A DNA stretch of 35,130 nucleotides from Deltaproteobacteria bacterium (GTDB taxonomy: Bacteria; Desulfobacterota; Binatia; Binatales; Binataceae): positions 1 to 35,130 of the forward strand of contig PMOH01000323.1 in assembly GCA_003161515.1 (NCBI GenBank), written 5' to 3'. The position numbers were made by a program, and so were the translations under genes. This document shows positions 2,579 through 30,524 of the stretch, in pieces. Position 1 is the first letter of the stretch, and each line of letters starts with the position of its first letter. The notes beneath the pieces were generated by a model. That model had not been told where the DNA came from. It was given only the letters and a program-made list of their open reading frames with translations, and did no database searches.

Positions 2579-2597
2579 TTAAAGGTAGAGTTATCAG

Positions 2598-2960: not shown

Positions 2961-2965
2961 GGCAT

Positions 2966-4777: not shown

Positions 4778-5086
4778 ATGGAAACAAATCTAAATCCGTG
4801 GGAAACGCACGACTGGTTCGACCGTCCATTGGAAATCGATCCGGGCGAAAGAATCACTCAGTTCATTTGCCGCAAATGCGGTCGTGGATTCGTGAACGAT
4901 GCGGATGGCAGGCGATACGCTATTCACGCTTCAGCGTTCGCTATCTATCGTCTCGCGGACGAAGTCACCGACCGATGGCTTTCGGAACCGTGCCCCAGTG
5001 AGCTCAAGCAAGCGGATCTGGACGATAGGAGTGCTCGCCATATGAACGGATCTTCCACGCCCGAATCCGTCGCCAAGTCGAGATAG
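4778..5086 (+). CDS. Hypothetical protein, 102 aa (CxxC-containing)
   Basis: ATG at 4778 preceded by CCAGGTGGGG. Sequence METNLNPWETHDWFDRPLEIDPGERITQFICRKCGRGF... matches no family I recognise. The longer ORF from 4466 overlaps the kinase gene and crosses AT-rich, non-coding-looking DNA. Confidence 0.35.
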   Translation: METNLNPWETHDWFDRPLEIDPGERITQFICRKCGRGFVNDADGRRYAIHASAFAIYRLADEVTDRWLSEPCPSELKQADLDDRSARHMNGSSTPESVAKSR

Positions 5087-5162
5087 TGTAGTACCGAACT
5101 TTATTACGCAGCGTTCCACTTTATCTGGCCCATACTACATTGAGTTAGACACTTCGGCGAAC

Positions 5163-5660
5163 TCATAGCGCCTTGTGCCAGAACTCCATCGGGATGCGTT
5201 CCGCGCCAAACGCCGCTTGATCGAAACCGACTTTGCGATAGAGTCTGCGCGCTACGTGATTGTCCTTGCGCACTTCGAGCGTGATCCGGCAGCAATTCAG
5301 CTCGCGCGCGCGGACCTCGATTCGTTCGAGCAGCATCGCGCCGATTCCAGTTCCCCGCACTGACGAATCGACGAAGATGTCGTGGATGTTGATCAAAGGG
5401 CGCGCGTTGAAGGTCGAGAATCCCAGGAAGCAAATCGAAAAACCGACCGGCGAGCCGCCGCGATACGCGAGGAATACATAACACGCCGGATGTGCGCGCA
5501 GGCCCGGCACCAGGTCGCGCTTGATTCGCTCCGACGGACGCTCGCCACCCTCCATCGGATCGCGCATGTACGCATCGAGCATCGTAACCAGCGCCTGTTG
5601 ATGCTCGCCGCGCGACAAATCCGCGTCAACGATCGTCACGTTCTTCAGTTCAGCGGTCAC
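5163..5660 (-). CDS. GNAT-family N-acetyltransferase, 165 aa
   Basis: GNAT acetyl-CoA-binding motif IFVDSSVRGTGIGAMLLERIEVRAREL and C-terminal HVARRLYRKVGF. GTG start at 5660 overlaps the upstream gene's TGA (GTGA). The 236-aa ORF-track version runs into the MORN gene in another frame. Confidence 0.8.
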   Translation of the reverse strand: MTAELKNVTIVDADLSRGEHQQALVTMLDAYMRDPMEGGERPSERIKRDLVPGLRAHPACYVFLAYRGGSPVGFSICFLGFSTFNARPLINIHDIFVDSSVRGTGIGAMLLERIEVRARELNCCRITLEVRKDNHVARRLYRKVGFDQAAFGAERIPMEFWHKAL

Positions 5661-6109
5661 GAGACTTTGTTGTCGTCCTTGTAGGTCTCTTCCCAGTTCT
5701 TGAATCCTTCGGGGTCCCATCGCTTCCAGACGCCCTCGCGCTTGCCGTTCTTGTACATGCCGACCGCCGCGATTTTGCCGTTGGTGTACCAGCCGACGTG
5801 CTCGCCCTCCTGCACGCCGTCTTTGTAGTGGTCCACCGATTTCTTCTGGCCGTTGTCGTACCACATCGTCCACTCGCCGCTCTGTTTGCCGTCGTGATAC
5901 TCGCCGACGATCATCTTCCCACCATCGTCGCGATAGAGCACGTACGGCCCTTCTTTGACGTCGGCACCGTTAACGGTCTTCACGCAAGCAATCTCGGAGT
6001 CATTAGGCGGCCCTTGTCCCATCTGCTTAGTCCCAGCCGAACAAAGCGGCGCCGCTTTGCACCCGGTCAAAACAGCAGCGAGGAGTAATACTGCGGCTTT
6101 GGCATTCAT
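5657..6109 (-). CDS. MORN-repeat (YwqK-like) lipoprotein, 150 aa
   Basis: The ATG at 6109 gives MNAKAAVLLLAAVLTGC, a signal peptide with a lipobox Cys. Repeated G-x-x-x-G-E-W/G-x-W-x-x-Y units follow (GKQSGEWTMWYDNGQKK, GVQEGEHVGWYTNGK, GKREGVWKRWDPEG), typical of MORN-variant repeats. Confidence 0.7.
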   Translation of the reverse strand: MNAKAAVLLLAAVLTGCKAAPLCSAGTKQMGQGPPNDSEIACVKTVNGADVKEGPYVLYRDDGGKMIVGEYHDGKQSGEWTMWYDNGQKKSVDHYKDGVQEGEHVGWYTNGKIAAVGMYKNGKREGVWKRWDPEGFKNWEETYKDDNKVS

Positions 6110-6198: not shown

Positions 6199-6651
6199 CT
6201 ATTTTTTTGGTACGAGCTGCCCGCCCATAAGCCCGAATTGCGCAAACTCCTCAGGAGAACCTACCGAAAACATGAAAGTGTCTCTGAAGATTTGATTGCC
6301 GTCTTTTAACAGACGAATCACATATCGCCCCGTACGCGGAAACTTGATCAGACCGGATATCACGAACGGCAAATTTATCCGTTCGGCTCGTTTAATGTCT
6401 ACCGGGTGAGGAGGAAGGCTAAAAATCAAAGTCCCTGACCAATCCTTCACTTCAAGCACCAAATTTCCTGCGCCTTCACCCGCCCCGCCAACGAAAAAGA
6501 ATGTAATTCCTCCGAGAGGTATCTCTAGATTTTGCACCCGAATATCAACATTAGGCGCTATTCCGTAGAAGCCCAGAATAGTACTTTTTCCGCCCAATTC
6601 GGGACGCGCGGAATCGCAAATAATGCACTGATCAATGTGCGGGAAAGGCAT
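6199..6651 (-). CDS. Hypothetical soluble protein, 150 aa
   Basis: Intact ORF directly abutting the upstream gene (stop at 6652, start at 6651). Beta-rich sequence MPFPHIDQCIICDSARPELGGKSTILGFYG...; no family recognised with confidence. G+C is lower than in the flanks. Confidence 0.55.
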   Translation of the reverse strand: MPFPHIDQCIICDSARPELGGKSTILGFYGIAPNVDIRVQNLEIPLGGITFFFVGGAGEGAGNLVLEVKDWSGTLIFSLPPHPVDIKRAERINLPFVISGLIKFPRTGRYVIRLLKDGNQIFRDTFMFSVGSPEEFAQFGLMGGQLVPKK

Positions 6652-7740: not shown

Positions 7741-9432
7741 CTAGTTCGATCCAGTCGAACCCAGCAAATTGCCGCCCAGCGTTGCGTTGCCGACTGAGAC
7801 GTCGCCGATCACGTTTATCAGCGCGGGCTTGCCTGACTTGAACGCGCGCTCGAGCGCCGGCTTGATCTGCTCGTTGGTCTCGACCTGCTCGCCATGACAT
7901 CCCATCTCGGCGAAAATTTTGTCGTAGCGGATGTTCGGCAGCATGTTGAACGGATCGGTGCGGCCCTTCAGCCCCGGCATCTGATCGAAGTTCGGGCCCC
8001 ACGAACTGTTGTTCCACAGCACCGTGATTACCGGCAGCTTGTAGCGCGCCGCAGTCTCCATGTCCCAGCCGCCGATTCCCAGTCCGCCGTCGCCGCTAAT
8101 CACGACGACTTGCTGGCCCGGCCGCGCGAGCTGCGCACCGATGCCCATCCCGACGCCGTGACCGACCGGCGCGAGCGGACCCGCGTCCACCACCTGGCCC
8201 ATGAAGCGGCAGGTGAACGCGCGGCTCATCCATCCCGACAGCGTGAAGCTGTCGATGACGGTGGTCGCGTTTTTGTCGAGCACGGTGATCAGATCTTCGC
8301 ACAGGCGCGCCGGATGTATCGGCTGATTCTTCGAGACCTTCGCGTTCTGCTCCTTGATCGTATTGTCGAAGCGCTGACGCGTCTCCCAGACCTGCTTGAC
8401 CCACGGCGAAGTTTTGTTCTTCGAGAAGTCGAGCTTGAGTTCCTTGATGCGCTTGATCATCTGTTGCAGCACGATCTTCGGATCGCCGACCATCGGCAGG
8501 TCCGCGTTCACCTGCCATCCGATTCGCGTCGGCGTCGGATCGATCTGGATGTACTTGGCCTTGTCGGTCCAGGTCGGCGGCTGTCCGAAATGCTCGCCGC
8601 TCCAGAAACGGAAGCCGATGGCGACTACCACATCGGCGCCGCCGGTGAACGGCTTCTTGAACGCGCCGCGAATCGCCAGCGGATGCTCTTCTGACACGAC
8701 GCCCTGGCCGGCGCGACGTGCGTAAATCGGGATGTTCGTCAGTTCGACGAACTCCCGCATCTCGGCGCCCGCCTGCGACCAGAACACGCCGTCGCCGCAT
8801 GCGATCAGCGGACGCTCAGCCGCCACCAGCATCTCGAGCGCGCGATCGATCTTCGCCGGGTCGCCCGCCGAGCGGACGTCGTCCATCGTAAATTCGCGCG
8901 CGCCCTTGCGCTGCCCCGAGTCTTCTTCGTGGTGATAGAGAATGTTCTGCGGAATCTCGAACAGCGCAACGCCCTGCGGCGGCGAGATGGCCTCGCGGAA
9001 CGCGGATCGCAGATCGAACTGGATCGTGGACCAGTCGGTCACCCGCTTGGTGAACTTCGAGAAGCTATCGACGACCTCGGAGCCGTAGGCCTCCTGGAAC
9101 GATCCGAGATGATCCTCGGTATTCGGATGCTGCCCCGAGATGCAGACCACGGCGCTGTTGGTCAGTCCCGCGACGCATAGTCCCGTCACTGCGTTGGTGA
9201 GACCGCATCCCGCGGTCACCATGCACACGCCGACTTCGCCCGAGGTGCGCGCGTACGCGTCGGCCGCGTAGGCGGTCGCCTGTTCGTGACGCATGTGGAT
9301 GAGCTTGATGTCGTGATTGCGCAACTGGCCGAGGATCGGAAACAGATGCCCGCCGTTGATCGCGAAACAATACTTCACCCGATTCTCGCGCATCACGCGC
9401 GCAATTAATTCTCCGCCGTCAGCTTTCGCCAT
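7741..9432 (-). CDS. Thiamine diphosphate-dependent enzyme, acetolactate synthase/oxalyl-CoA decarboxylase-like family, 563 aa
   Basis: The ATG at 9432 is preceded by AAGGAG. The N-terminal Pyr domain (RHEQATAYAADAYAR..GVCMVTAGCGLTNAVTG) and the C-terminal ThDP-binding motif GDGGLGIGGWDMETAARYKLPVITVLWNNSSWG are diagnostic for the family. Substrate cannot be inferred. Confidence 0.88.
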   Translation of the reverse strand: MAKADGGELIARVMRENRVKYCFAINGGHLFPILGQLRNHDIKLIHMRHEQATAYAADAYARTSGEVGVCMVTAGCGLTNAVTGLCVAGLTNSAVVCISGQHPNTEDHLGSFQEAYGSEVVDSFSKFTKRVTDWSTIQFDLRSAFREAISPPQGVALFEIPQNILYHHEEDSGQRKGAREFTMDDVRSAGDPAKIDRALEMLVAAERPLIACGDGVFWSQAGAEMREFVELTNIPIYARRAGQGVVSEEHPLAIRGAFKKPFTGGADVVVAIGFRFWSGEHFGQPPTWTDKAKYIQIDPTPTRIGWQVNADLPMVGDPKIVLQQMIKRIKELKLDFSKNKTSPWVKQVWETRQRFDNTIKEQNAKVSKNQPIHPARLCEDLITVLDKNATTVIDSFTLSGWMSRAFTCRFMGQVVDAGPLAPVGHGVGMGIGAQLARPGQQVVVISGDGGLGIGGWDMETAARYKLPVITVLWNNSSWGPNFDQMPGLKGRTDPFNMLPNIRYDKIFAEMGCHGEQVETNEQIKPALERAFKSGKPALINVIGDVSVGNATLGGNLLGSTGSN

Positions 9433-9709
9433 TACTGAGCTCCTTTTGAGGAAATCTTTCCCGCTCGCATCGAATCCTTGCACATTTACCGCGTCGCCGA
9501 AAAGCGCGCGCGCGTACATGACGATTCGTTCAGGAAATTCCTCGCAGCAAACGCGCCCGCAGGGTTGATCGCTGAGTGTAAGCCTGTCACTTTTGACCAT
9601 CGTTCGGTGCTGTGGGCTCGGAGGTATCCGAGCGCTTGGGTTGTGGGTGGCGGAGCGGCGGGAGAGTAGCCGAATGCTAAACGACAAGGCTTAATTTCAG
9701 GATCTCACC

Positions 9710-11059
9710 ATGCGGCGCATCCTCGCCTCCCTCATCTTAATCACAACTTTTGCGATTGTGGCCGCTACCGCACGCGCCGACTCATCGACCCCGGCCACGA
9801 CGTTAGCCACTTCGACGCCGCCCGCAACTGTTCCGACATCGTCGTCGTTCTCGTTGCTGGACCCCGGCACCTGGAGCATGCCGCATTACGACTGGCAATC
9901 ATTCAAAATCCAGGATCCCAACTCGTGGCCGTTCATCCCGGTGCCGGAAGTCGCGACCGACCCCAACGGCGGAGTCACTTACGGCGTGCTCCCGGTCTGG
10001 CTCTTCACCGACGACAAGAACGAGATCACCAGCATCTTTGCGCCCGATATCAACTCCAACAGCACGCTCGGACCGGGCGGCAACTTCCGGTACCTGGCCT
10101 ATCCCTCATCGGATACGAATTGGTATGCGGTCGCTGGTGCGCAGGAGACGATCGCGCGCGACGTCGATATCGATTATCAAACCGGGCGTCAGCACAAGAA
10201 GTGGTGGTCGTTCGAGGGCCGCTTCTTTTTCGAAAAAGATCCGACCGAGCGCTTCTTCGGAACCGGCAATCATTCTCACGAGGGAAACCAGAGCAACTAC
10301 ACGACCAAGCAAATCTACGGAGAGGCGATTTTCGGCATAAACTTCAGCGACCGGCTGCAGCTCTCGATGATGGAACGTCCGCGCTACGTGCGAATCGAGG
10401 ACGGCGGCTTCACTTCGGTGCCGTCAATCTTCAAGGAGTTCCCGCATGTGAAGGGCCTCAACGGGGGCAGCGAAGTTCTGTCGCAGTGGATGCTGCAATA
10501 CGACTCGCGCGACTCGGTGGATATCCCGCGCGCGGGCACGCTCGCCCGCGCCTATTACGGTGTTGCGGATCGGCGATTCGGCAGCTCGATTTCGTACAAC
10601 CGCTTTGGCGGAGAGCTGCGCCAGTACTACACCGTCGGAGAGCGCATCACGTTTGCCGGTCACGTATTTAACGAATACCAGCCGGTCAACGGCGAGATTC
10701 CATTCTGGTCGCAGGCGCGGCTGGGCGGCGACGAGAGCTTGCTGACCGATCAGGAAACCCTGCGCGGCTACGGCGCCGGCCGCTTCATCGACAACAACCT
10801 GTTCGTGATGAACGTCGAGATGCGCACGCGAGTGTGGGACAAGACCATCTTCGGCACCCACGGCATCTTCGAGCTGGCGCCGTTCGCCGAAGCCGGACGC
10901 GTCGCGCACAATTTGAGCTTCAACCCCTTCTCGGAGCTGCACCCGGTCGGCGGCATTGGCCTTCGCGCGATCGCGGAACCGTTCGTCGTCGGCTTCGTTG
11001 ACGTCGGATGGGGTGGCGAAGGCGCCGCCGTCTTCTCCGGCATCAACTATCCATTCTGA
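9710..11059 (+). CDS. Omp85/BamA-family outer-membrane beta-barrel protein without recognisable POTRA domains, 449 aa
   Basis: Signal peptide MRRILASLILITTFAIVAATARA, then a Ser/Thr/Pro-rich stretch. Barrel motifs typical of the bacterial surface antigen domain: LRGYGAGRF, NVEMR, GIGLRA. Terminal aromatic residue (..GINYPF). Confidence 0.8.
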   Translation: MRRILASLILITTFAIVAATARADSSTPATTLATSTPPATVPTSSSFSLLDPGTWSMPHYDWQSFKIQDPNSWPFIPVPEVATDPNGGVTYGVLPVWLFTDDKNEITSIFAPDINSNSTLGPGGNFRYLAYPSSDTNWYAVAGAQETIARDVDIDYQTGRQHKKWWSFEGRFFFEKDPTERFFGTGNHSHEGNQSNYTTKQIYGEAIFGINFSDRLQLSMMERPRYVRIEDGGFTSVPSIFKEFPHVKGLNGGSEVLSQWMLQYDSRDSVDIPRAGTLARAYYGVADRRFGSSISYNRFGGELRQYYTVGERITFAGHVFNEYQPVNGEIPFWSQARLGGDESLLTDQETLRGYGAGRFIDNNLFVMNVEMRTRVWDKTIFGTHGIFELAPFAEAGRVAHNLSFNPFSELHPVGGIGLRAIAEPFVVGFVDVGWGGEGAAVFSGINYPF

Positions 11060-11062
11060 TCG

Positions 11063-11102
11063 CGAACTCGACTACGAATTGCCCGAAGAGCTGATTGCGC
11101 AG
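11063..11102 (+). repeat. Orphan copy of the queA 5' coding end (left copy of a 40-bp direct repeat)
   Basis: 38 of 40 nt identical to 16709-16748 inside queA. Both mismatches (11084, 11090) are third-codon positions, so it still encodes ELDYELPEELIAQ. There is no start codon, and it begins 4 nt after the Omp85-like stop. Confidence 0.85.
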
Positions 11103-11117
11103 ATCCTGGAACGGCTC

Positions 11118-11139
11118 GGCAGGCACGGGCTTGCCTGCC
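11118..11139 (-). terminator. Stem-loop downstream of the giant secreted-protein gene
   Basis: GGCAGGCA (11118-11125) / TGCCTGCC (11132-11139) with a 6-nt loop, about 20 nt beyond the stop at 11161 on the minus strand. No clear U-tract. Confidence 0.35.
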
Positions 11140-11160
11140 CGTGATAGACGCGCGCTCCAG

Positions 11161-14100
11161 CTAAGGCCCAGTCCCCGTGAGCGCGATATTATGCGGACTC
11201 GTCGGATCGCTCCCGACGCTAACCGCAATACTGGCGCTCTCCGCCGATGGCCCCGCCGTCGGCGTGAACGTAATCGCGATCGTGCACGTCGAATTCGCCG
11301 CCATCGTACCGCCGCCGCACGTCCCGCCCGTCACCGCGAAGTCGCCCGCGTTCGGCCCCGTAGTGCTGCTCTCGCTAACCGGCAGCGCAAATGCCGACAG
11401 ATTAGTCACCGTGATGTCTTTCGTCTTCGTCGGCGTCCTTGCCGTCAGCGTGCCGAATGCCAGCGTACTCGCCGGGATCACCGTCGCCGGAATATTCTCC
11501 GCGGTGGTTAACGGAACCATATACGGCCCCAGCGTATCTGGGCTGTCCGCAACCGTCATCAGCGCCGACTCCGTCCCCAGCTGGGTCGGAGCGTAGGTGA
11601 CAATCAGTGTGCAAATCGATTTCGCCGCCAGCGTCGATGCTGGTGTCAGCGTCAGGCAAGTCCCGCCCGTGACGCTGAAATCTGATGCGTTCGGTCCGCT
11701 GAACCCCGGCGGCAGCGTCAGCGTGACCGCATTCGTCTGGAAATTGTGCACCACGAACGTCTTCAGCCTCGTGGATCCAATCTTCACGCTGCCGAATGCG
11801 TAGCCCATCGGCGCAACCGTCATGTCCGCTACGCCGGTGCCGCTTGCCGCCACGCTCTGCGGACTGCTCGACGCGTTGTCATTGACCGACAACGTCGCGC
11901 TATGCGGGCCGAGTGCGCTCGGCGTGAACCCGATCGCGATCGTGCAGGTGGCCAGATGCGCAAGTCCGCCGCCCGGGCACGTAGTCGCGCCCGTCGCCGC
12001 AAATTCAGGATCGTTCGATGTCACGTTGCCGACGAACAGCAGGTTCGCGCCGGTATTCTTCACCGTGATGTTCTTGGTTGCTTCGTCCCCGACCGGAACG
12101 TTGCCGAACGCGAGCGAAGCCGTCACCGTCAGCGTGGTCGTTGGCGTCGCGGTCGCAGTCGGTGTCGCCGTTGAGGTTGCACTCGCCGTGGCGGTCGCTG
12201 TCGCAGTATTCGTCGCCGTCGCGGTCGCCGTCGCCGTGTTAGTCGCCGTCGCGGTCGCCGTGTTCGTCGCAGTTGCGGTTGCGGTAGCTGTGTTCGTCGC
12301 GGTTGCGGTAGCTGTCGCGGTCGCAGTCGCGGTTGCGGTTGCGGTAGCTGTTGCGGTCGCTGTTGCGGTCGCGGTCGCCGTCGCCGTGGCAGTAGGAGTC
12401 GCGGTCTTGGTGGCGGTTGCGGTCGGCGTCGGGGTCGGCGCAGGCGCGCCCAAAGCGTAGAAGGCGCTGGACGCGCTTAAGAAGCCCTGCACCGCGCCGA
12501 AGTAAACGGTCCCATCGGCGCCGATCGCCGACGAAATTGACGCTATCTGTCCGCCCGAAAATACTTTCTCCCACTTCTTGGTGACGTCGCTTGGACCACC
12601 GTCGGTTAACGCGTAGTAGTCGCCGTTATCGTTGCCGACGAAAATGGTCCCGTCGCCGCCAACAACTGGCGCGGTCGCGACCTCATTGCCGGTCGCGAAT
12701 GCCCACTTCTTTGCCGCGCTGGCGCCGTTGTCAGTCAGCGCGACGACGTTGCCATTAAAGTCGCCAAAGTAAATGGTCCCGTCAGCGCCGATCGCTAATG
12801 CGGTCGACACATTGCCGCCGGCTGAGTCTGAGTAAACCCAATTCTGCGTGGGGGGAGTGCCCGAAGCGGGCATGCAGGTGGGGCAATAGGGACCGTTGTC
12901 AGTCACCGAGGCGATGTAGACAGAGTTGCTGACGTAGTAAATCGTCCCGTTGGCGCCGATCGACGGATTCCCCATCAATATCGCGTTAGGGATAGCCCAT
13001 TTCTCAACCGGGCAGGTGTAAGGGCTTCCGTTGTTTGGGCAGGTCGTGACTGTATTGGCCTCGATCGCGTAGTTCTCGATGTATATCGTGCTGCCGTCGG
13101 CGCTCAGCGCCGCATTTCCTGAAACCCCACGGAACTCCCACTTCTCTGCGGCAGTGCCAGCTCCGGTGCATGCGGCGACCGGGCTCCCGACACCGGTGCA
13201 CTCGACGACCGCCTGGAGTTCATTGTCAGCTCCTATGTAAATGGTCCCGTCGGGCCCGACCAGCGGTGATCCGCCGCCCGCCCCTAGATTTTCGCCTTCG
13301 AACGCCCACTTCAGGGTGCCGTCGGCAATGTTTAGCGCGTAGAGGTGGGCACCGGCGACGAAGTAGATCGTGTTGCCGTCGTTGCTGATCGCCGGCGAGC
13401 CTATCGGCGTATCGGAGGTGGCTAATGTGTACTCCCACTTCTGCGTGCCGTTGGGATTTAGAGCGAAGAACTGGAGGTTACCAACCGCGTGATTACCGAA
13501 GTAAATGATCCCGTTCGCGTCGATTACCGGCGCGACCAGCAAAAATCCACTCGGGGTTGAGACCGACCACTTAACCGCGCCCGTGTTGGTGCTGGTGTCG
13601 AACGGGCTTCGGCCCCTGCGCGCGTTATTGTATTGAAACGTCGGCCATACAGCCTGACTGACATCCACGTTCACGGGTTGCGATGGAATGCCGTTTGCGA
13701 TGACCTTCATCGTGACCGAACCCAGCAGCGATGTGACCGCCGGTACATCGAATTTAGTCGAGACCGGTGCGCTGCCCGTCGCGACTCCCATAGTGCTGTG
13801 GTCGTGAGTACGGAAATAAGAGACTTGTCCCGCGTTGTTGGTCACCTGCACCAATGGATAGTTAGTAGCACCCTGGTAGTCGTCTCCGTAGCCAACTGCC
13901 TGCGACAGGCCGTTGAACTGCGTGCCGGTCAGTTGGTAGGTCTTGCCGGGAGTCACCTGGACCGGGAAGTTGGTGATGGTCGGCTCCCATGCCGGATTGT
14001 AAGTACCCGCGGGCGTGTAGATCTCGACATCGCTGGTACCATCGGTCCACAGAACCTGGCCGCTGGGGAGCGGCAGCAGGCGCCCATTGAACGCTGGCTC

Positions 14101-15339
14101 ATTGGCCGCATTGGGAGGCGCGGCCACCGGCGTCAGGCTGGCCCCATCGAACTCGAAAAATTCGGCTACCCGTGACGTACAGCTGCCGTCCACCGGCGAA
14201 ACCGCCATCAGCACGTTGCCATCGGTAAGCAGCGCCGCCGGTGCATCCTCCGCAGCTAATTGCTCCGTCGTGTTGGTACAACTTCCGACAGTGATCGTGA
14301 TAGTCGGGAAACCGGGACCGGGGCTCCACAGACCGGTGATCGTGTCGTAAATGTCGTTGAAGCCGGTCGCTCCTTCATCGAAGAGGGTGCCGTCGGGACG
14401 CAATATGGCCGGTCCGATTTCGTCAGCCGAGATGTCGACCAAGGGATCCGGCGCGGTCCCGGTAACCTCCCAGTCCTGCTCGACCGGGTTATAAACCAGG
14501 GCCGGAGTTTCGGTAGTGTCAAGCGAGTTGTGATTCTGCATGGTCAGGACTTCGCCGTTAGGCAGCAGCGTCCACCCTTCCTCGTCATTGCCATGGTCTT
14601 CAGCGGACTTCCCCGGAGGGGTGAAAGGCGGGTTAAAAGTGGGCGGGTTCGTGTTGACGTCTAATGTGGCGACGTCAAAACCGAAGTCATCCGCGACCAT
14701 AAAGGTTCCGTCGTCCAGAACCACCGACGCGGCATCGCCTATCTTGGTCCATCCTGTGGGAGCCGTGATGCATGTCCAATTGTTGTGGACCGGATCGTAA
14801 ATAGCGCCTTGGTCGGTCCAGACCGTACCGCCAGTATTGCCTCCCATTGAATCGTAGTTGTAGTTGTATTCGCCGCCGACCATTACGAACCGGCCATCGG
14901 GCAAGACCGCCGACGCGTAGAACAGCGGGGAGTAAACCGTGTCCGCGGAAAAGTTGCCATTGGGGCAATTTGATGGCGCCGCCACCTGGCTCCATTGTCC
15001 ATTTATATAGCTGCCGGAATTGTCGGGGGTCAGCGTCCACCAGGCGACGTTAAGCAGGTTTCTATCTTCGGCCAGAATTCTGCCGTCGGTGAGCACGAAT
15101 ACGCTCTGGGGACCAAATGACGGCTGATTATTCAGCGGTGTCCAGGTGCCCGAGATTGCGCCGGGCGCGCCGAACCCACCAGAAACCTGCTCCGAAGGAT
15201 GCGGATGCGGCACCGGCTGCGCCAATTGTGCCTGCACCAGCCGCGGATTGTTCAACACCACAATCGCCAGTATCGCCAACCCAGCCGAGCCCAGGATCGC
15301 GATCGCGCCGACCCGCACTCTCCCCCACGATGCCTTCAT
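11161..15339 (-). CDS. Giant secreted/cell-surface protein, ~1392 aa
   Basis: The ATG at 15339 lies 6 nt downstream of GAGGAGG; a GTG at 15345 is also in frame. Domain order: (1) hydrophobic N-terminus VGAIAILGSAGLAILAIVVL. (2) A kelch/galactose-oxidase-like propeller ending in an E-set-type segment (PAWEPTITNFPVQVTPGKTYQLTG...NGIPSQPVNV). (3) About 8 repeats of the D-G-T-I-Y-F/I-G + KW type, as in PQQ/BamB-like propellers. (4) A ~105-aa (TA)n linker. (5) Three ~95-aa Ig-like repeats (LAFGNVPVGDEATKNITVKNTG...C..I..FTP...SGTG). Confidence 0.85.
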   Translation of the reverse strand: MKASWGRVRVGAIAILGSAGLAILAIVVLNNPRLVQAQLAQPVPHPHPSEQVSGGFGAPGAISGTWTPLNNQPSFGPQSVFVLTDGRILAEDRNLLNVAWWTLTPDNSGSYINGQWSQVAAPSNCPNGNFSADTVYSPLFYASAVLPDGRFVMVGGEYNYNYDSMGGNTGGTVWTDQGAIYDPVHNNWTCITAPTGWTKIGDAASVVLDDGTFMVADDFGFDVATLDVNTNPPTFNPPFTPPGKSAEDHGNDEEGWTLLPNGEVLTMQNHNSLDTTETPALVYNPVEQDWEVTGTAPDPLVDISADEIGPAILRPDGTLFDEGATGFNDIYDTITGLWSPGPGFPTITITVGSCTNTTEQLAAEDAPAALLTDGNVLMAVSPVDGSCTSRVAEFFEFDGASLTPVAAPPNAANEPAFNGRLLPLPSGQVLWTDGTSDVEIYTPAGTYNPAWEPTITNFPVQVTPGKTYQLTGTQFNGLSQAVGYGDDYQGATNYPLVQVTNNAGQVSYFRTHDHSTMGVATGSAPVSTKFDVPAVTSLLGSVTMKVIANGIPSQPVNVDVSQAVWPTFQYNNARRGRSPFDTSTNTGAVKWSVSTPSGFLLVAPVIDANGIIYFGNHAVGNLQFFALNPNGTQKWEYTLATSDTPIGSPAISNDGNTIYFVAGAHLYALNIADGTLKWAFEGENLGAGGGSPLVGPDGTIYIGADNELQAVVECTGVGSPVAACTGAGTAAEKWEFRGVSGNAALSADGSTIYIENYAIEANTVTTCPNNGSPYTCPVEKWAIPNAILMGNPSIGANGTIYYVSNSVYIASVTDNGPYCPTCMPASGTPPTQNWVYSDSAGGNVSTALAIGADGTIYFGDFNGNVVALTDNGASAAKKWAFATGNEVATAPVVGGDGTIFVGNDNGDYYALTDGGPSDVTKKWEKVFSGGQIASISSAIGADGTVYFGAVQGFLSASSAFYALGAPAPTPTPTATATKTATPTATATATATATATATATATATATATATATATATNTATATATATNTATATATNTATATATATNTATATATASATSTATPTATATPTTTLTVTASLAFGNVPVGDEATKNITVKNTGANLLFVGNVTSNDPEFAATGATTCPGGGLAHLATCTIAIGFTPSALGPHSATLSVNDNASSSPQSVAASGTGVADMTVAPMGYAFGSVKIGSTRLKTFVVHNFQTNAVTLTLPPGFSGPNASDFSVTGGTCLTLTPASTLAAKSICTLIVTYAPTQLGTESALMTVADSPDTLGPYMVPLTTAENIPATVIPASTLAFGTLTARTPTKTKDITVTNLSAFALPVSESSTTGPNAGDFAVTGGTCGGGTMAANSTCTIAITFTPTAGPSAESASIAVSVGSDPTSPHNIALTGTGP
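12137..12452 (-). repeat. Coding low-complexity tandem repeat: (Thr-Ala)n with periodic Asn/Pro, 6-nt periodicity
   Basis: The plus strand reads GTCGCn/GTTGCG hexamers almost without interruption. It translates on the minus strand to PTPTPTATATKTATPTATATATATAT...TNTATATATATNTATATAT. ATNTATATAT-type higher-order units recur 4 times. Confidence 0.9.
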
Positions 15340-15469
15340 CAGCACCCTCCTCGACGAGACTCACTGATCATGGAACCCCCTGCGATGCTGGTGAAGGCGA
15401 ACTAATTGCTGTGCCAAGGCCCATCTCCACCCGTCGTGGACGATAACGACGAGTCAGATTTCGCGGCAA

Positions 15470-15485
15470 TACGTAGTTTGACGTA
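15470..15485 (+). promoter_or_regulatory. Candidate operator/-35 element TACGTAGTTTGACGTA upstream of the LuxR-type regulator gene
   Basis: Inverted half-sites TACGT/ACGTA flank a 6-nt spacer, and TTGACG (15478-15483) is -35-like with CACAAT 18 nt downstream. A near-identical 16-mer sits in the same orientation upstream of the paralogous regulator (30400-30415). Confidence 0.3.
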
Positions 15486-15539
15486 TATGCGACTTAAGGC
15501 GCACAATCCGCGTGGCTGATCCGGGACCCGGGGGGATTC

Positions 15540-16613
15540 ATGTACCGCTACACGCGCAATGACTTCGATCGCGTGCTTGAGTTCGTCAGAGGCCTCTATG
15601 AGCCTCGAAGCCTTGGCGCGTTCAGCGACCATTTGCTCTCCTCACTCCGCACGCTCGTCCCCTCCGTGTTCAATGGCGTAGTATCGGTTGAAGTCAGGAA
15701 TGCTCAGCAGGCCTGGACCACGCGCACCAACCCCCCTGAGTTTGTCTCCCCGGAACTTGACGAAATTGCCACGCGCCATGTGCCTGAGAGCGCGATCTTC
15801 AGCCACTTCGAGCGCACTGGTTGTCAGCAATTCACGCGATGGTCCGACATACAGCCATTGTCACAATTTCTGCGCACTGCGCTTTACAACGATGTGTATC
15901 ACCAGTTGGGGGTCAAAGATTGTTGCTCATTGATCTCGCACTCCAGTCCCACTCGGCTCGAAATCGTAGGAGTCACTCTGCACAAGCAGATTCCCGATGC
16001 GCACCGGGACGTCCTCGTCTCGATTTCGCCGCACTTGCGCCAGGCCTTTCGCCTCGCGCATACCAGCTCGGCGCTAATCGAAATGGCGGCCATGAAAAGC
16101 GGTCCGAATGGCTCCGAACGCGGCATCGTGGCGATCGACCCGGACGGTACCATCACGATGGAAACCCCGGGCGCGACCAGATCGCTAGAGAAGTTTTTCC
16201 CGAAACGAACCGCACGAGGCTTGCCCGAGCCGTTGGCCCAGTGGATATCGCAATCGGACGACACGCTTCGAAAGTCCACCGACGTTCCGAAGGTTCGGCG
16301 TCCGTTTGTGATCGAGCAGCCTGGCAACCGCCTGACCGTCCATCTGCTCTCCAGGCCCGCGCAGAATTTCCTGCTGTTCGAAGAACGTCCGTGGGCGATC
16401 GATCCCGCCGCTCTCGCAAGTCTTCCGTTGACCCATCGTGAGTCAGAAATCCTGGCCTACGTCGCAGCCGGCAAAACCAATTTCGAGATTGGGATTATCC
16501 TCGGCATCAGTTCGCGCACCGTCGAGAAACACATCGAGCACATCCTGGATAGCCTCGGCGTCGAAACCCGCACCGCCGCCGCCGCATCCGCCCTCGAAGC
16601 CGCCAACCTATGA
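15540..16613 (+). CDS. LuxR/FixJ-type HTH transcriptional regulator with a long uncharacterised N-terminal sensor-like domain, 357 aa
   Basis: C-terminal LuxR HTH LTHRESEILAYVAAGKTNFEIGIILGISSRTVEKHIEHILDSLGVETRTAAAA. No receiver or autoinducer-binding motif recognised in the N-terminal ~290 aa. Divergent from the giant gene. Paralogue of 29281..30366. Confidence 0.85.
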   Translation: MYRYTRNDFDRVLEFVRGLYEPRSLGAFSDHLLSSLRTLVPSVFNGVVSVEVRNAQQAWTTRTNPPEFVSPELDEIATRHVPESAIFSHFERTGCQQFTRWSDIQPLSQFLRTALYNDVYHQLGVKDCCSLISHSSPTRLEIVGVTLHKQIPDAHRDVLVSISPHLRQAFRLAHTSSALIEMAAMKSGPNGSERGIVAIDPDGTITMETPGATRSLEKFFPKRTARGLPEPLAQWISQSDDTLRKSTDVPKVRRPFVIEQPGNRLTVHLLSRPAQNFLLFEERPWAIDPAALASLPLTHRESEILAYVAAGKTNFEIGIILGISSRTVEKHIEHILDSLGVETRTAAAASALEAANL

Positions 16614-16688
16614 GTTCTGCCGACAAGAACAGTTTCCGGCTGCACATAGCGCGCGCGCTCCCGGGCTGGTATCTGAGAGGAGTCTGCT

Positions 16689-17726
16689 TTGCCTCAGATG
16701 CGGCTTTCCGAACTCGACTACGAATTGCCTGAAGAACTGATTGCGCAGGAGCCGCTCGCTCGTCGCGACGAGGCGCGCCTGCTCGTGCTCGATCGCAAAT
16801 CCAAGTCAGTCGAGCATTCCCGCTTCTACAAACTCGTCCGCCATCTGCGCGAAGGCGACCTGATCGTGCTCAACGACACTCGAGTGCTGCCGGCGCGCCT
16901 GTTCGCGCAGAAGGAATCGGGCGGCCGCGTCGAGTTGCTGATGGTGCGGCCGGCCAGCGCGGCTGAAGGTCCAAGTGGCGCATGGCTCGCGCTGATTCGC
17001 ACGCATCGTGTGCTCAAAGACAATGCGCGGCTCATCCTGGGTGACGGTCACGTCCTGAGAATCACCGGCTATGCGCGACCGGGACGCCCGGTCGTCGTGG
17101 CAGAGGGAGAGGTGTCGATCGAGCAGATCCTCCAACTCGATGGCATGCTCGCGCTACCTCATTATATACATCGCACCGTCGGGCCCGCCGATCTCGACGA
17201 CTACCAGACCGTGTATGCGTCGCGGCCCGGCGCGATTGCGGCGCCAACCGCGGGCCTGCATTTTACCGACGACGTTTTCAAGGCGCTGGCTGACGCGGGT
17301 ATCCGCACTGCGACGGTGACGCTGCACATCGGTCCCGGCACTTTCGCGCCGGTGCGCGCCCTCGACATCGAGAGTCACACGATGGAATCCGAGTGGTACA
17401 CGATTCCGCCGGCGACGCAGTCGGCGGTCGAGCATGCGCGGCGAATCGGCGGGCGTATCATCACGGTCGGCACCAGTTCGACCCGCGCGCTCGAGTCGTG
17501 GGCGATTACCGGCGACATCGAGGGTTTCACTGGCCTCTTTATTCATCCGGGCTTTCGCTTCAAGCTGGCAGACGCGATGCTGACGAACTTCCACATGCCG
17601 CGCACCACCGTGCTCGCGCTCGTGATGGCGTTTGCGGGACGCGATCAGATTCTCAGTGCGTACCGTGAAGCGATTCGCCATCGCTACCGCTTCCTCAGCT
17701 ACGGCGACGCGATGTTGATCCTGTGA
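16689..17726 (+). CDS. queA: S-adenosylmethionine:tRNA ribosyltransferase-isomerase
   Basis: MRLSELDYELPEELIAQEP, LPHYI, YQTVYA, AAPTAGLHFT, GTSSTRALES and TNFHMPRTTVL are classic QueA motifs. TTG at 16689 lies 7 nt after GAGAGGAG; the ATG at 16698 is an alternative start. Followed by tgt. Confidence 0.93.
   Translation: MPQMRLSELDYELPEELIAQEPLARRDEARLLVLDRKSKSVEHSRFYKLVRHLREGDLIVLNDTRVLPARLFAQKESGGRVELLMVRPASAAEGPSGAWLALIRTHRVLKDNARLILGDGHVLRITGYARPGRPVVVAEGEVSIEQILQLDGMLALPHYIHRTVGPADLDDYQTVYASRPGAIAAPTAGLHFTDDVFKALADAGIRTATVTLHIGPGTFAPVRALDIESHTMESEWYTIPPATQSAVEHARRIGGRIITVGTSSTRALESWAITGDIEGFTGLFIHPGFRFKLADAMLTNFHMPRTTVLALVMAFAGRDQILSAYREAIRHRYRFLSYGDAMLIL
16709..16748 (+). repeat. Right copy of the 40-bp direct repeat (within the intact queA 5' end)
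   Basis: CGAACTCGACTACGAATTGCCTGAAGAACTGATTGCGCAG matches 11063-11102 at 38 of 40 positions. Confidence 0.85.
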
Positions 17727-18856
17727 ACGGCCCGATTGAATTCAGTGTGACTGCGGTCGAAGGCGACGCGCGCACCGGGCGGATAGTAACTCCGCATGGC
17801 GGAGTCGCGACGCCGGCCTTCATGCCGGTTGGCACCCGCGCCGCGGTCAAGGCGATGGCGCCCGACGAGTTGTGGTCGATGGGCTACACGATGGTGCTGG
17901 CCAACGCGTACCATCTCGCGCTTCGTCCGGGCGCCGACCTGGTCCACGAGATGGGCGGCGTCGCGCGCTTCATGGGATTTCCCGGCGCGGTGCTGACTGA
18001 CTCGGGCGGCTTCCAGGCGATGAGCCTGGCGAAGATCAATTCGATCAATGAAGAAGGGATTCACTTTCGATCGCATCTCGACGGCACGCCGCTGATGCTC
18101 ACGCCCGAATCCGCGATCGACATCCAGCAGCAGCTCGGCGCAGATATAATGATGGCACTCGACGAATGCACGCCTTACCCAGCCGAGCATCGCCGCGCGC
18201 TCAAGTCGCTCGAGCTCACCGCGCGATGGGCCGAGCGCAGTCTCGCGGCGCGGGTGAGCACCACCCAAGCGCTGTTCGGAATTATCCAGGGCAGCATCTT
18301 CGAGGATCTCCGCAAGCTGAGCGCGTCGCAGATAACCTCGATTCCGTTCGACGGCTACGCGGCGGGCGGACTTTCAGTCGGTGAGCCGAAGGCTGCGATG
18401 CTCGAAATGGCGGCGCTGTCAGCGTCGATGATGCCGCGCGACCGCCCGCGCTACCTGATGGGCGTCGGCACGCCGTCGGACTTGCTCGCCGCGATTGCGA
18501 TGGGCTTCGACATGTTCGACTGTGTGCTGCCGACGCGAAATGCGCGCAACGGGATGGCCTTCACCAGTGTCGGGCCCGTCTCGATCAAGCAGGCCGCGCA
18601 CGCGCGCGACTCGACCCCGCTCGATCCTGCCTGCGAATGCCGCCCATGCCGGACCCATTCACGCGCCTACCTGCGTCATCTATATTTGTCGGGCGAGATA
18701 CTCGCGGCGCGCGCCTTGACGGAGCATAATCTTCACTTCTTCGCGAGCTTGATGCGCCAGAGCCGGGACGCTATCTCATCCGGTAATTTCGCCGCGTTTG
18801 CGAAAGTTCTTTCAGGAGAAATGAACCCCGGTGATCAAGTTTTTGATCGATCGTAA
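17723..18856 (+). CDS. tgt: tRNA-guanine(34) transglycosylase, 377 aa
   Basis: Motifs TPAFMPVGT, LTDSGGFQ, MALDEC, GIIQGS, RYLMGVGTP and FDCVLPTRNARNG, plus zinc site CECRPC..H. The GTG start overlaps the queA stop (GTGA at 17723-17726). Confidence 0.95.
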   Translation: MNGPIEFSVTAVEGDARTGRIVTPHGGVATPAFMPVGTRAAVKAMAPDELWSMGYTMVLANAYHLALRPGADLVHEMGGVARFMGFPGAVLTDSGGFQAMSLAKINSINEEGIHFRSHLDGTPLMLTPESAIDIQQQLGADIMMALDECTPYPAEHRRALKSLELTARWAERSLAARVSTTQALFGIIQGSIFEDLRKLSASQITSIPFDGYAAGGLSVGEPKAAMLEMAALSASMMPRDRPRYLMGVGTPSDLLAAIAMGFDMFDCVLPTRNARNGMAFTSVGPVSIKQAAHARDSTPLDPACECRPCRTHSRAYLRHLYLSGEILAARALTEHNLHFFASLMRQSRDAISSGNFAAFAKVLSGEMNPGDQVFDRS

Positions 18857-18868
18857 GGACGTGATCTG

Positions 18869-19228
18869 ATGTTGTTCGAAGGTACCGCATGGGCGCAGGC
18901 CGCCGCCGGCACGCCGGCCGACCAACCGTCGTTTGTGCAGCAGTTGATGACGGGGCCGGGGCCGATCATGGCGCTGGTCGTCGCCGTCATGTACTTCCTG
19001 GTCTTCCGGCCGCAGAACAAGAAGGCGCAGGAGCAGGCGAAGATGCTGAGCACGCTCAAGCGCAACGACGAAGTCGTGACCACAGGTGGGATCATCGGGC
19101 GCATTCAGGACGCCGGCGACAAAGTGATCACGCTCGAAGTTGCGCCCAACGTCAGGCTGCGGGTCGAGCGATCGCAAATCGCGGGGCTCTCGACTTACAA
19201 GGCATCCGCGAAGAAAGACGACAAGTAG
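18869..19228 (+). CDS. yajC: Preprotein translocase subunit YajC, 119 aa
   Basis: One TM segment (IMALVVAVMYFLVF) followed by RPQNKKAQEQAKMLSTLKRNDEVVTTGGIIGRI, the YajC signature. Canonical position between tgt and secD. Confidence 0.88.
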   Translation: MLFEGTAWAQAAAGTPADQPSFVQQLMTGPGPIMALVVAVMYFLVFRPQNKKAQEQAKMLSTLKRNDEVVTTGGIIGRIQDAGDKVITLEVAPNVRLRVERSQIAGLSTYKASAKKDDK

Positions 19229-21329: not shown

Positions 21330-21947
21330 ATGTCCCAGCCGCACGAAAGCCGCGTTTACTCCCACCTCGCACGCTTCTACGATTTTTTCTTCGGCCGCGT
21401 TTTCGTCGATCGCGAGCATGAGGTTATCGAGAGCCTGAATCTCAGGCCCGGCAACCGCGTGCTCGAAGTCGGCGTGGGCACCGGAATCGCGCTCGATGGA
21501 TACCCGCCGTATGCGCACGTCATCGGGATCGACCCGTCGGCCGACATGCTCGCGCGCGCACAGAAGCGTGTCACTGCGAACAATTGGAAGCATATCGAGC
21601 TCAGCCTTGGTGACGCGCTGAATCTCGACTACCCTGACAACAATTTCGACTACGTCACTTCGTTCCACGTGTTGACGGTGGTGCCCGATCCGTACCGCAT
21701 GATGGCCGAGATGGTGCGCGTGTGTAAGCCCGGCGGGCGCATCGCGATGACAACCCACTTCCAGAGCTCGAACAAGGCGATCGCGGCGCTCAACACGGTT
21801 GTGAATCCAGTCGCGCGGCAACTGGGATGGACCACCAAGCTGCGCAAGCAGGACGTGCTCAAGGGCCATCCGATCACGCTCGAGCGCAACGAAAAAATCA
21901 GTCCGATGTCGGTGCATACGGTGATCGTCGCGCGCAAGAACGCCTGA
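21330..21947 (+). CDS. Class I SAM-dependent methyltransferase, Rhodobacter-type PmtA-like (possible phospholipid N-methyltransferase), 205 aa
   Basis: SAM motif I VLEVGVGTGIAL, post-I GIDPSADML, and PDNNFDYVTSFHVLTVVPDP...CKPGGRI. The overall layout (YDFFFG near the N-terminus, ~200 aa) resembles PmtA-family enzymes. Substrate not proven. Confidence 0.8.
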   Translation: MSQPHESRVYSHLARFYDFFFGRVFVDREHEVIESLNLRPGNRVLEVGVGTGIALDGYPPYAHVIGIDPSADMLARAQKRVTANNWKHIELSLGDALNLDYPDNNFDYVTSFHVLTVVPDPYRMMAEMVRVCKPGGRIAMTTHFQSSNKAIAALNTVVNPVARQLGWTTKLRKQDVLKGHPITLERNEKISPMSVHTVIVARKNA

Positions 21948-21950
21948 GGC

Positions 21951-22925
21951 GTGCGCGCTGACGACGAGATAGCGCTCGGCCGCTGGCATCGCCTTGCCGC
22001 TGAACTGATCACGCTCATCTATATTGCGGTGATTGCCGAGATCGCGTCGGCAACCGGCGCCTTCTACGTGATGTTCCCGGAGCTCGGCGCGCTGTCGCAC
22101 GACGTCCTCACGCGGCCCCGTGGTACCTGGGCGCGTTCGCCGCTGATGCTTGCGATCACGCCCTTCCTCACGGCGGTGATCGGAATCGTCTTCACGCGGA
22201 TACTTCCGTATGGCTTCGTCTCGGTCCTGCTCACGGTGGGAAGCGCAGTCGCGCTGATAATGCTGCTAAGGTCGCCGATCGCGCCGGCGATTTCTGCCGG
22301 CCTTTTGCCGCTCGTGCTGGGAGTCAAAAGCTGGTGGTATCCACCGGGCGTTCTGCTTGGAACGGTGCTTTTGTGTGCGCTTTCAATCCTGTGGGAAAGG
22401 ATTAGCGTCGCACAAAACTGGCTTGAGCCACTCACCGCGGCAGACGTGGTCGATGAAACGCTGGAACAGAATCCCGCCACATCTTATTGGCTGGTCGCAC
22501 TGATGCTGTTCGTGGCGATGGCGGTGCTCGTCGTCAAGCTGACCGGTCTGCGCTTCGTGCTTTTTCCCCCGCTGGTCGTTATCGGATTCGAAATGTTCGG
22601 CCACACCGCCATCTGTCCGTGGGCCAAGCGACCACTGTTTTTGCCGGCCGCTTGTTTTCTGACCGCCGCCGGTGGATTGCTCTTCTGGAATCTGCTCGGA
22701 GTCGGACCGGTCGCCGCCGGATGCAGTATCGCATGTGGAATGGCGGTGCTGCGCTTGTTCGATTTGCACGTACCGCCTGCGCTCGCGGTCGGCCTGATTC
22801 CCTTCGTGATGGATTCCCCGACTATCGCCTACCCAATCTCGGTCGGAATCGGCACGCTGCTGATGACGCTATGGTTTCTACTCTACCAATCGTTCTTTCG
22901 CAGGTACGAGCGCGAGTATCATTAG
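21951..22925 (+). CDS. Polytopic membrane protein with internal two-fold repeat (HPP-family-like), 324 aa
   Basis: About 8 hydrophobic segments. The two halves align: FPELGAL...SPIAPAISAGLLPLVLG versus FPPLVVI...LHVPPALAVGLIPFVM. GTG start 3 nt after the methyltransferase stop. Family assignment is tentative. Confidence 0.6.
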   Translation: MRADDEIALGRWHRLAAELITLIYIAVIAEIASATGAFYVMFPELGALSHDVLTRPRGTWARSPLMLAITPFLTAVIGIVFTRILPYGFVSVLLTVGSAVALIMLLRSPIAPAISAGLLPLVLGVKSWWYPPGVLLGTVLLCALSILWERISVAQNWLEPLTAADVVDETLEQNPATSYWLVALMLFVAMAVLVVKLTGLRFVLFPPLVVIGFEMFGHTAICPWAKRPLFLPAACFLTAAGGLLFWNLLGVGPVAAGCSIACGMAVLRLFDLHVPPALAVGLIPFVMDSPTIAYPISVGIGTLLMTLWFLLYQSFFRRYEREYH

Positions 22926-22940: not shown

Positions 22941-23023
22941 ATCCGAATGAGCTGGTCGAGCGCAACGAAAAAATCAGCCCGATGTCGGCGGATACAACGA
23001 TCTTCGCGCGCAAGAATTCTTAG
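22941..23023 (+). pseudogene. Relic of a methyltransferase 3' end (encodes NPNELVERNEKISPMSADTTIFARKNS*)
   Basis: 22955-23023 aligns without gaps to 21879-21947 (56 of 69 identical, 13 mismatches by hand count). It keeps the frame and has its own stop, compare LERNEKISPMSVHTVIVARKNA*. There is no upstream methyltransferase body, since the membrane gene ends 15 nt before it. Confidence 0.65.
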
Positions 23024-27742: not shown

Positions 27743-27824
27743 CGGAACCACTTGCTGAGGCTTGCGAAGGCGCGAAGTGCTCTCCTATCGAAAAGTTCGA
27801 CACCCGGCATCGCTTGGCGGCCAT

Positions 27825-29258: not shown

Positions 29259-29280
29259 GTTTATCGCGCTTCAGCCGCTC

Positions 29281-30366: not shown

Positions 30367-30399
30367 CGGTGGGTACGTACATTTCCGTATTGTCCAGCG

Positions 30400-30415: not shown

Positions 30416-30524
30416 ATAGTAGGTCAATTGTGTCAATGATAACTTTTAGTATGAAAAATAGCGTTCAAGCTAATCGGCGTTCTTCCTGAGACTCAAAACT
30501 GGGTCGAACTGCCCGTTCTGTTCG

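Follow-up and report, generated by a model that had tools for sequence, protein, structure and literature searches.

Probable scars of insertions with long, variable target duplications at a hypervariable Omp85-queA interval in Candidatus Binatus

Insertions that are bracketed by long target duplications of variable length and that carry no mobile-element genes have been described before (PMC2853133; Nobusato et al. 2000, as cited therein). Homology-facilitated illegitimate recombination (HFIR) is reported to leave orphan fragments behind (PMC5361080, PMC3240628; de Vries & Wackernagel 2002 and Prudhomme et al. 2002, both as cited in PMC5361080), and hotspots free of mobile elements diversify by recombination at their flanking core genes (Oliveira et al. 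2017, PMC5635113). Orphan arrays that form by successive displacement are known from the immunity genes of V. cholerae's type VI secretion system (T6SS) (PMC5361080) and, according to work cited there, from the displacement of Rhs C-terminal ends. Here, we describe the interval between an Omp85-family outer-membrane protein gene and queA in a 35,130-nucleotide (nt) stretch of DNA from a Deltaproteobacteria bacterium (GenBank assembly GCA_003161515.1, contig PMOH01000323.1, positions 1 to 35,130 of the forward strand; hereafter, the window). The window organism is a Candidatus Binatus species. The interval holds an insert of 5.6 kb with two genes, one for a giant secreted protein and one for a LuxR-type regulator, neither of which is a recombinase, and the insert is bracketed by a 40-nt direct repeat of the queA 5' end. 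We consider it likely that accessory genes are gained, swapped, and lost at this hotspot by the cell's own recombination and repair, with no dedicated mobile-element enzyme.

The two repeat copies, 11063-11102 (CGAACTCGACTACGAATTGCCCGAAGAGCTGATTGCGCAG) and 16709-16748 (CGAACTCGACTACGAATTGCCTGAAGAACTGATTGCGCAG), are identical at 38 of 40 positions by direct reading of the window, and their homology ends at 40 nt on both sides. Both mismatches, 11084/16730 (C/T) and 11090/16736 (G/A), are at third codon positions and synonymous in the queA frame, and both copies translate to ELDYELPEELIAQ. The right copy corresponds to nt 12-51 of queA; this gene is intact (ATG at 16698) and was identified by matches to Pfam Queuosine_synth (E=9e-116) and to NCBIfam QueA above its cut-off; the product read from a TTG at 16689 has no exact record because gene callers start at ATG 16698. 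The left copy has no start codon, is in a different frame from Omp85, and is separated from the Omp85 stop (11057-11059) by the three nucleotides TCG. These readings bear out the original prediction, made from the letters of the window, that a 38/40 repeat with only synonymous differences joins a startless copy just past the Omp85 stop to a copy inside an intact queA. Its proposal that the orphan derives from a once-functional queA allele also looks real, as the orphan is identical at 39 of 39 positions to the functional queA 5' end of another species (L011).

At up to three mismatches, the 40-mer matches nothing else in the whole window. Six contigs of separate metagenome assemblies (L001-L006, including the slightly diverged strain L002) have an identical left copy and the same structure, and two noisy, error-rich Joint Genome Institute (JGI) contigs also show the repeat-insert structure; therefore, the structure is no assembly artefact, and it predates strain divergence inside the window's species. 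The shortness of the repeat is all that speaks for chance similarity or an assembly chimera. That reading is already refuted by this recurrence and by the failure of any of 100 dinucleotide-preserving shuffles to give a 40-mer match, and we assign it next to no probability.

To place the insert in context, we compared 35 orthologous Omp85 loci from Candidatus Binatus/Binataceae genomes (69-95% amino acid identity; about 0.8 Mb of related sequence). An empty site is present in 14 of the 35 species (L009, L013, L018, L022, L023, L025-L028, L030, L033, and L038-L040), in which the Omp85 stop is followed by a conserved spacer of 88-121 nt and then by the queA start (ATGCGGCTTTC), with a single queA 5' end. 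In one further species (L012, 3088-3093), the spacer is 0 nt long, and the TAA of Omp85 abuts a TTG that stands where the queA ATG usually is. The 14 empty-site carriers are other species, not strains of the window's species. Relative to these sites, the segment is an insertion, as had been predicted. A queA fragment adjoining the Omp85 stop was found in none of the 35 relatives, and the orphan is limited to the window's species. The original prediction had named one observation that would point instead to an older, unrelated rearrangement, namely, relatives that lack the segment and still keep the orphan; there is no such relative in the comparison, and the orphan is tied to the insert. Dispersal of the 40-mer had likewise been put forward as a check, and in the related sequence the 40-mer is not dispersed: it occurs at queA 5' ends only, plus one other orphan (L016).

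The distance between Omp85 and queA varies widely among the 35 loci, with gaps of 0 nt (one locus), 88-121 nt (14 loci), 650-916 nt (nine loci), 1.8-2.3 kb (five loci), and 3.4-6.3 kb (four loci plus the window), while synteny is lost in two loci. The occupied loci hold at least eight different cargos of 0.65-6.3 kb that are mutually unrelated. A small secreted chalcone-isomerase-like open reading frame (ORF) is present in 10 species. Secreted proteins with choice-of-anchor-D domains occur in several different versions, and the other cargos include methyltransferase-like genes, DUF1254/DUF1214, CoA-transferase III, and an alpha/beta-hydrolase, along with a beta-helix protein and a fragment similar to pro-kumamolisin. 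In three loci (L020, L021, and L041), a LuxR gene lies directly upstream of queA, and the homology with the window begins at 15421-15425. The Omp85-queA interval is thus a hypervariable hotspot rather than a site that one element targets.

We found no integrase or transposase in the principal ORFs of the window that were scanned or in any hotspot cargo tested, and no terminal inverted repeats joining the segment ends, which upholds the original prediction on all three counts. An Rfam scan of the whole window gave no family at gathering score, and a tRNA/tmRNA scan of the window found none, so a tRNA-type attachment (att) site is excluded. The features of known element classes are missing in several respects. 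For a transposon or insertion sequence, there is no transposase and no inverted repeat joining the ends, and the duplications are 40-290 nt long rather than fixed; for an integron cassette, there is no integrase, and no terminal hairpin is common to the cargos of the different species; for a site-specific element, there is no recombinase family, and the boundaries of the would-be att core differ (queA nt 51 in the window versus nt 56 in L016).

A gene-end repeat with one-sided reconstitution of the gene is the typical geometry of gene-end-targeting integrative elements. The locus could accordingly be read as an island whose att site lay in the queA 5' end, where it integrated site-specifically and supplied a replacement gene start, with its integrase acting in trans or since lost; the direct repeat at a gene end and the reconstitution of queA on one side are what this reading would lead one to expect. 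However, beyond the differing boundaries and the lack of an integrase in the window or in the cargos tested at this site in the 35-species comparison, the native leader and start codon, which an attL should have kept, are missing from the left side. Omp85 3' ends are duplicated too (L016 and L021), the cargos are single genes with no relation to each other and not versions of one island, and a scan of a viral collection with a degenerate 40-mer gave no match. The att-island reading is largely refuted, and we hold it to be very improbable. The att-like, site-specific duplication of the original prediction is unlikely for the same kind of reason: the orphan in L016 ends at queA nt 56, and the other scars are 42 to ~290 nt long.

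The left junction is a composite. When aligned to the empty site, queA, and LuxR genes, 11057-11160 resolves into a patchwork of identifiable pieces in the order Omp85 stop, TCGCG, queA nt 12/13-51, ATCCTGGAACGGCTCGGC, one base, the palindrome ACGGGCAGGCAAGCCCGTGCC (minus strand), and the stop of the giant gene (Table 1). The spacers of the empty-site loci L022, L023, L025, and L038 begin with TCGCG, as does the post-stop sequence of L007, L016, L017, L021, and L037. Between TCGCG and AACTCGAC, a stretch of ~100 nt made up of the spacer and queA nt 1-11 is absent, which is why the left copy has no start; this loss is an extra deletion or junction. The 18-mer ATCCTGGAACGGCTCGGC matches the LuxR gene of L041 (14613-14630) at 17 of 18 positions, that of L020 at 16, and the window's own LuxR gene (16542-16559) at 15; strand and codon phase agree in each case. 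We estimate the chance of a match with at most one mismatch anywhere in the ~1.6 Mb searched at roughly 0.001-0.006, so that the 18-mer is probably a true LuxR scrap. However, it is short, and an unrelated site in tgt matches it at 16/18, which calls for caution. The idea that a LuxR remnant in L036 has exactly the start base of the scrap was dropped, as degraded LuxR homology continues upstream in L036.

The palindrome, called a hairpin in the original prediction, aligns together with ~20 nt beside it with a dispersed element that resembles repetitive extragenic palindromic (REP) sequences and has at least six copies in another contig, L044, where one copy lies downstream of the homolog of the giant gene. 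It is absent from the loci of the other 35 species. The fold of the whole 114-nt hairpin region is no better than that of shuffled sequences (z=-0.13), and terminator and promoter scans gave nothing at the junctions. Compatible overlaps of 2-4 nt are found at the joints: CG at TCGCG/TTCCG, and GCGCAG against GAGCAC. With the palindrome, the giant gene on the minus strand, and the LuxR gene on the plus strand, the contents between the repeat copies are those first listed, to which the 18-nt LuxR-like scrap is added.

Because a LuxR-type scrap lies between the queA stub and the cargo, serial replacement is suggested: the stub would have been made while an earlier, different LuxR allele held the site, and the REP-giant-LuxR module would have replaced that allele later. 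The original prediction had taken the segment for an insertion footprint, and this is right, but a single discrete 5.6-kb element that arrived with the repeat-making event is probably not what happened. LuxR genes stand upstream of queA in L020, L021, and L041, with a remnant in L036, and the scrap at the junction is of another type than the LuxR gene now in place.

Table 1. Coordinates of the features at the Omp85-queA interval in the window.
Feature	Position	Strand	Evidence or remark
Omp85-family outer-membrane protein gene, conserved left flank of the hotspot	9710..11059	+	Pfam PF01103 E=2e-17; NCBIfam Omp85_fam; orthologs in 35 genomes
TCGCG, vestige of the start of the ancestral Omp85-queA spacer	11060..11064	+	Spacer alignments (see text)
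Orphan queA 5' fragment (queA nt 12-51)	11063..11102	+	38/40 to 16709-16748; 39/39 to L011 allele; confined to the window's own species
18-nt probable scrap ATCCTGGAACGGCTCGGC, like LuxR 3' region (ILERLG)	11103..11120	+	Sequence matches to LuxR genes
REP-like palindrome ACGGGCAGGCAAGCCCGTGCC	11122..11142	-	Just downstream of the stop of the giant gene; the hairpin of the original prediction
Giant secreted protein, 1394 amino acids (aa)	11161..15345	-	Domain matches
Divergent intergenic (promoter) region, giant/LuxR	15346..15539	.	Colinear with L044 throughout
LuxR/GerE-type regulator, 357 aa, C-terminal helix-turn-helix (HTH), N-terminal domain of no known family	15540..16613	+	PF00196 E=8e-15
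queA leader, "type B" upstream region	16614..16697	+	Common to L015, L017, L020, L021, L036, and L041; unlike the spacer of empty-site species
Intact queA; nt 12-51 (16709-16748) are the right repeat copy	16698..17726	+	ATG 16698 conserved as ATGCGGCTTTC in nearly all relatives

Comparable scars recur at this hotspot and elsewhere. In L016 (12027-12134), the queA leader plus 56 nt of queA is fused to the last 38 nt of Omp85 between two different cargos, the very structure expected if a fragment from Omp85 nt -38 to queA nt 56 had integrated. The L021 locus has an orphan Omp85 3' end behind the small ORF (11969-11994), and the sequence after this orphan is homologous to that after the real Omp85 stop in L020. 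The LuxR 3' remnant of L036 (12110-12190) lies after a methyltransferase-like gene. The window has another such scar, in which the terminal 61 nt at the 3' end of a methyltransferase gene (21880-21940) are repeated at 22956-23016 with 89% identity and bracket an HPP-family membrane gene (insert 21951-22925) that most relatives are without, L010 providing the empty site; the downstream copy has amino-acid-changing differences. Two independent insertions are found at the queA/tgt junction. In L013, a 175-nt duplication (12433-12607 / 13370-13544, 94% identical) brackets a membrane ORF of 194 aa, and in L020, a 42-nt duplication (5216-5257 / 5775-5816) brackets ~520 nt. Across scars, duplication lengths run from 40 to ~290 nt, and breakpoints at a given site vary between events. 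A search for long direct repeats gave eight candidates in the ~0.8 Mb, six of which proved on checking to be gene-end duplications around an insert. This suggests that the insertion process is frequent in the Binatus lineage.

Scars of this kind might also come from replication. In a single complex event of template switching, similar to fork stalling and template switching (FoSTeS) or microhomology-mediated break-induced replication (MMBIR), the fork would leave queA at about nt 51, copy short stretches and the module ectopically, and re-enter upstream, so that the queA 5' end is duplicated. The junction mosaic of 5-, 40-, and 18-nt pieces with overlaps of 2-4 nt would suit such an event, as would the varying lengths of the duplications and the fact that no recombinase gene turned up. 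However, the scraps do not reproduce the sequences that now neighbour them: the orphan differs from the local queA at 2 of 40 positions, and the LuxR scrap matches the L041 gene at 17/18 versus 15/18 for the local one. In addition, unrelated cargos between the same flanks across species fit an exchange of alleles between genomes better than copying within one. We therefore regard template switching as unlikely, though it is the strongest of the competing explanations.

Other signs of recombination are present around the hotspot. Divergence between the window and strain L002 is patchy, with 0 differences in 8750-10500 (TPP/Omp85) and ~5% in 17000-19000 (queA-tgt-yajC). In a comparison of nucleotide identities per gene, which lends weak support, Omp85 and queA are also the genes whose similarity ranks agree least with those of their neighbours. 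Together, these sequence patterns appear to indicate frequent homologous recombination around the hotspot. A separate observation concerns L036, in which TPP and Omp85 have 94-96% nucleotide identity to the window while queA has 77%, on a contig with many frameshifts; this contrast comes either from recombination with a breakpoint at the hotspot or from a chimeric assembly.

Under recombination by the cell's own functions, the 40-nt orphan would be the scar of an insertion that duplicated a long stretch of its target. Incoming DNA from a related genome with another hotspot allele, ending in the queA leader and 5' end, would pair homologously with the resident queA on the right, and its left end would be joined illegitimately, at microhomologies of 2-4 nt, to the resident queA at about nt 51. 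The route could be one-sided HFIR or the single-crossover integration of a circularised fragment, with an equivalent outcome; homology-anchored illegitimate recombination is in our view the most likely pathway. Either way, queA would remain intact, and a duplicated 5' stub would be stranded beside Omp85. The present structure could then have formed in three steps, each a known type of event: (a) resident queA nt 51 would be joined to the 3' region of an L041-type LuxR gene, followed by leader and queA; (b) everything from the LuxR scrap onward would be replaced by the REP element, the giant gene, LuxR, leader, and queA; and (c) the old spacer and queA nt 1-11 would be lost between TCGCG and AACTCGAC, at the CG overlap. 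We infer the number and order of these events from the composite junction.

Several points weigh against this reconstruction. The proposed path needs three events, the anchor of 40-51 nt is short for RecA-dependent pairing, and the LuxR scrap is short, at 18 nt. No donor or intermediate was recovered: the predicted intermediate, in which the cargo would be preceded on its left by the full spacer and queA nt 1-51, did not turn up, and a metagenome scan for the orphan/cargo junction gave only two noisy contigs from the same species. The orphan has CCC/GAG, while the sister species L007 and the window's functional queA have CCT/GAA; therefore, either copy may be the resident or the donor-supplied one. 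Finally, the evidence for uniqueness of the 40-mer extends over the 35-kb window and the sequence of relatives only.

The content of the hotspot in the window is a regulator-plus-target module made up of LuxR, the divergent giant gene, and a REP-like terminator palindrome. The giant protein is composed, in order, of a signal/anchor, a kelch-like domain, a PQQ/BamB-like beta-propeller, an Ala/Thr/Pro linker, and three choice-of-anchor-D (ASH-type Ig) domains. Binataceae have a large family of its kelch-like domain, with 2772 proteins scoring at E<=1e-10. We found no full-length ortholog of the giant protein; the best match, P0001, covers the N-terminal 62% of the query, its kelch-like part, at 73% identity. 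This match is encoded on contig L044, divergent from a GerE/LuxR gene, and the window from the giant 3' end to the LuxR stop (11165-16609) is colinear with L044 11947-6767 at ~78% nucleotide identity. The neighbours of the L044 module are unrelated to those in the window, with LexA and DUF5131 on one side and a glycosyltransferase and NusG on the other. At the protein level, the window's LuxR shares 73% identity with that of L044 and 68-71% with those encoded upstream of queA in L020, L021, and L041; the latter three share 78-82% with each other. As called, the giant homolog in L044 is split into two genes (8001-9890 and 9942-11951; 629 and 669 aa), which reflects either a real fusion/fission or a frameshift of a nanopore-derived assembly. 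Strain L002 has ~165 extra nt near the giant 3' end (5000-5165, versus window 11161-11200), with 1448 aa called versus 1392 aa in L001; thus, the domain content of the giant varies within the species.

The original prediction had suggested a check for a compositional anomaly of the segment. None is seen in GC content, third-position GC content (GC3), or codon usage, in all of which the cargo matches its flanks; therefore, composition gives no argument for a foreign origin. The match is as expected for exchange within the lineage.

The L044 module is itself bracketed by a direct repeat of ~290 nt (6339-6628 / 11805-12086) that comprises the giant 3' end plus the downstream REP-like region. The REP-like element of L044 (GCGAGCTGGAAGCTCGC...CACGGGCAGGGACGCCCGTGCC) has palindromes at 3006, 6594, 6638, 6678, 12052, and 14221, which include a tandem array with copies spaced 40-44 nt apart. 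Other REP-like families are present in other species (L017, L022, and L029). These palindromes raise the question of whether an enzyme associated with REP elements (REP-associated tyrosine transposase [RAYT]/IS200-type) and encoded elsewhere moves the LuxR-giant module, possibly via a circular or tandem form. A REP-like element lies 20 nt from the window's junction, the same family flanks the L044 module on both sides, and the order of LuxR 3' end, REP, and giant 3' end at the left junction of the window and in L044 is that expected of a tandem or circular form. Yet the right end of the window segment has no REP copy, no Y1 transposase was found in the loci examined, and the other scars (the HPP gene, L013, L016, and L020) are without such a palindrome. 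REP elements are, moreover, often passengers downstream of convergent genes. Mobilisation by way of the palindromes is accordingly about as improbable as an att island. The broader idea that Binataceae LuxR-plus-secreted-protein modules are themselves mobile, take on a circular or tandem form in transit, and are moved in trans, for example, by a REP-associated enzyme, would account for this shared order, but it fares only marginally better and is in our judgment highly doubtful. If it were true, the long and variable target duplications would be the signature of a trans-acting function rather than random repair scars.

The window has a second regulator-plus-secreted-protein cluster at 27762-32444, in which proteins of 498 aa and 639 aa (the latter GH30-like) flank a LuxR paralog. 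Both proteins end in a choice-of-anchor-D Ig domain, and the Ala/Thr/Pro linker repeats of the cluster resemble those of the giant gene at 12100-12450. The LuxR paralog is 27% identical overall, with 77% nucleotide identity in the HTH region. At the other end of the window (824-4524), genes for a KaiC-like ATPase, two KaiB proteins, and a PAS histidine kinase stand in a row and, by their Pfam families, form a clock-like kaiCBB-kinase cluster.

The locus is a natural example, from an uncultured soil phylum (Binatota), of accessory genes placed between housekeeping genes without mobile-element machinery, and its scars are clear enough for several successive events to be read from them. It extends long-target-duplication insertion, mainly known for restriction-modification genes, to regulator-plus-secreted-protein modules. 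For Binatus genomes, the Omp85-queA interval is a place to seek strain-specific secreted proteins, and the recurrence of scars in these genomes is the aspect that most deserves systematic follow-up.

Among the described systems, the closest parallel is with long-target-duplication insertions, in which a direct repeat of more than 30 bp and of variable length is single copy in insert-free genomes, the insert is smaller than 20 kb and has no integrase or transposase, and the duplication often overlaps a gene end (PMC2853133). Here, the repeat is 40 nt long and single copy in 14 insert-free species, and the 5.6-kb insert is without mobility genes. The cases in that study differ in carrying restriction-modification cargo, mostly in naturally competent bacteria, whereas here the cargo is LuxR plus a secreted protein in an uncultured Binatus; the left copy in the window is also trimmed further and is followed by a second scrap. 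As in HFIR, one end would have a homology anchor (here, queA and its leader), the other would have a joint with a few nucleotides of microhomology, and housekeeping functions would suffice. HFIR, however, was defined experimentally, and its joint usually deletes recipient DNA, whereas the window has a duplication, and we infer the pathway from scars only.

The turnover of genes between two conserved core genes, with no mobility genes and with signs of recombination in the flanks, is shared with mobile-element-free hotspots (PMC5635113). In that model, exchange occurs by clean double homologous recombination in both flanks, while the orphans here record imprecise, one-sided events. As in the T6SS orphan arrays, new modules enter beside a conserved anchor, and displaced occupants leave truncated orphans; the T6SS and Rhs orphans are whole immunity genes or toxin tips, sometimes kept by selection, whereas those of the window are non-coding scraps of 18-40 nt. 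The locus resembles gene-end integrative elements in its gene-end direct repeat and in the gene being kept intact, but an integrase and a fixed core are lacking, as is a native leader at the left junction, and the locus does not belong among them. Altogether, the Omp85-queA interval shows a known, recombinase-free insertion signature: it is a fresh example in an uncultured phylum, with cargo other than restriction-modification genes, and not a new kind of genetic element.

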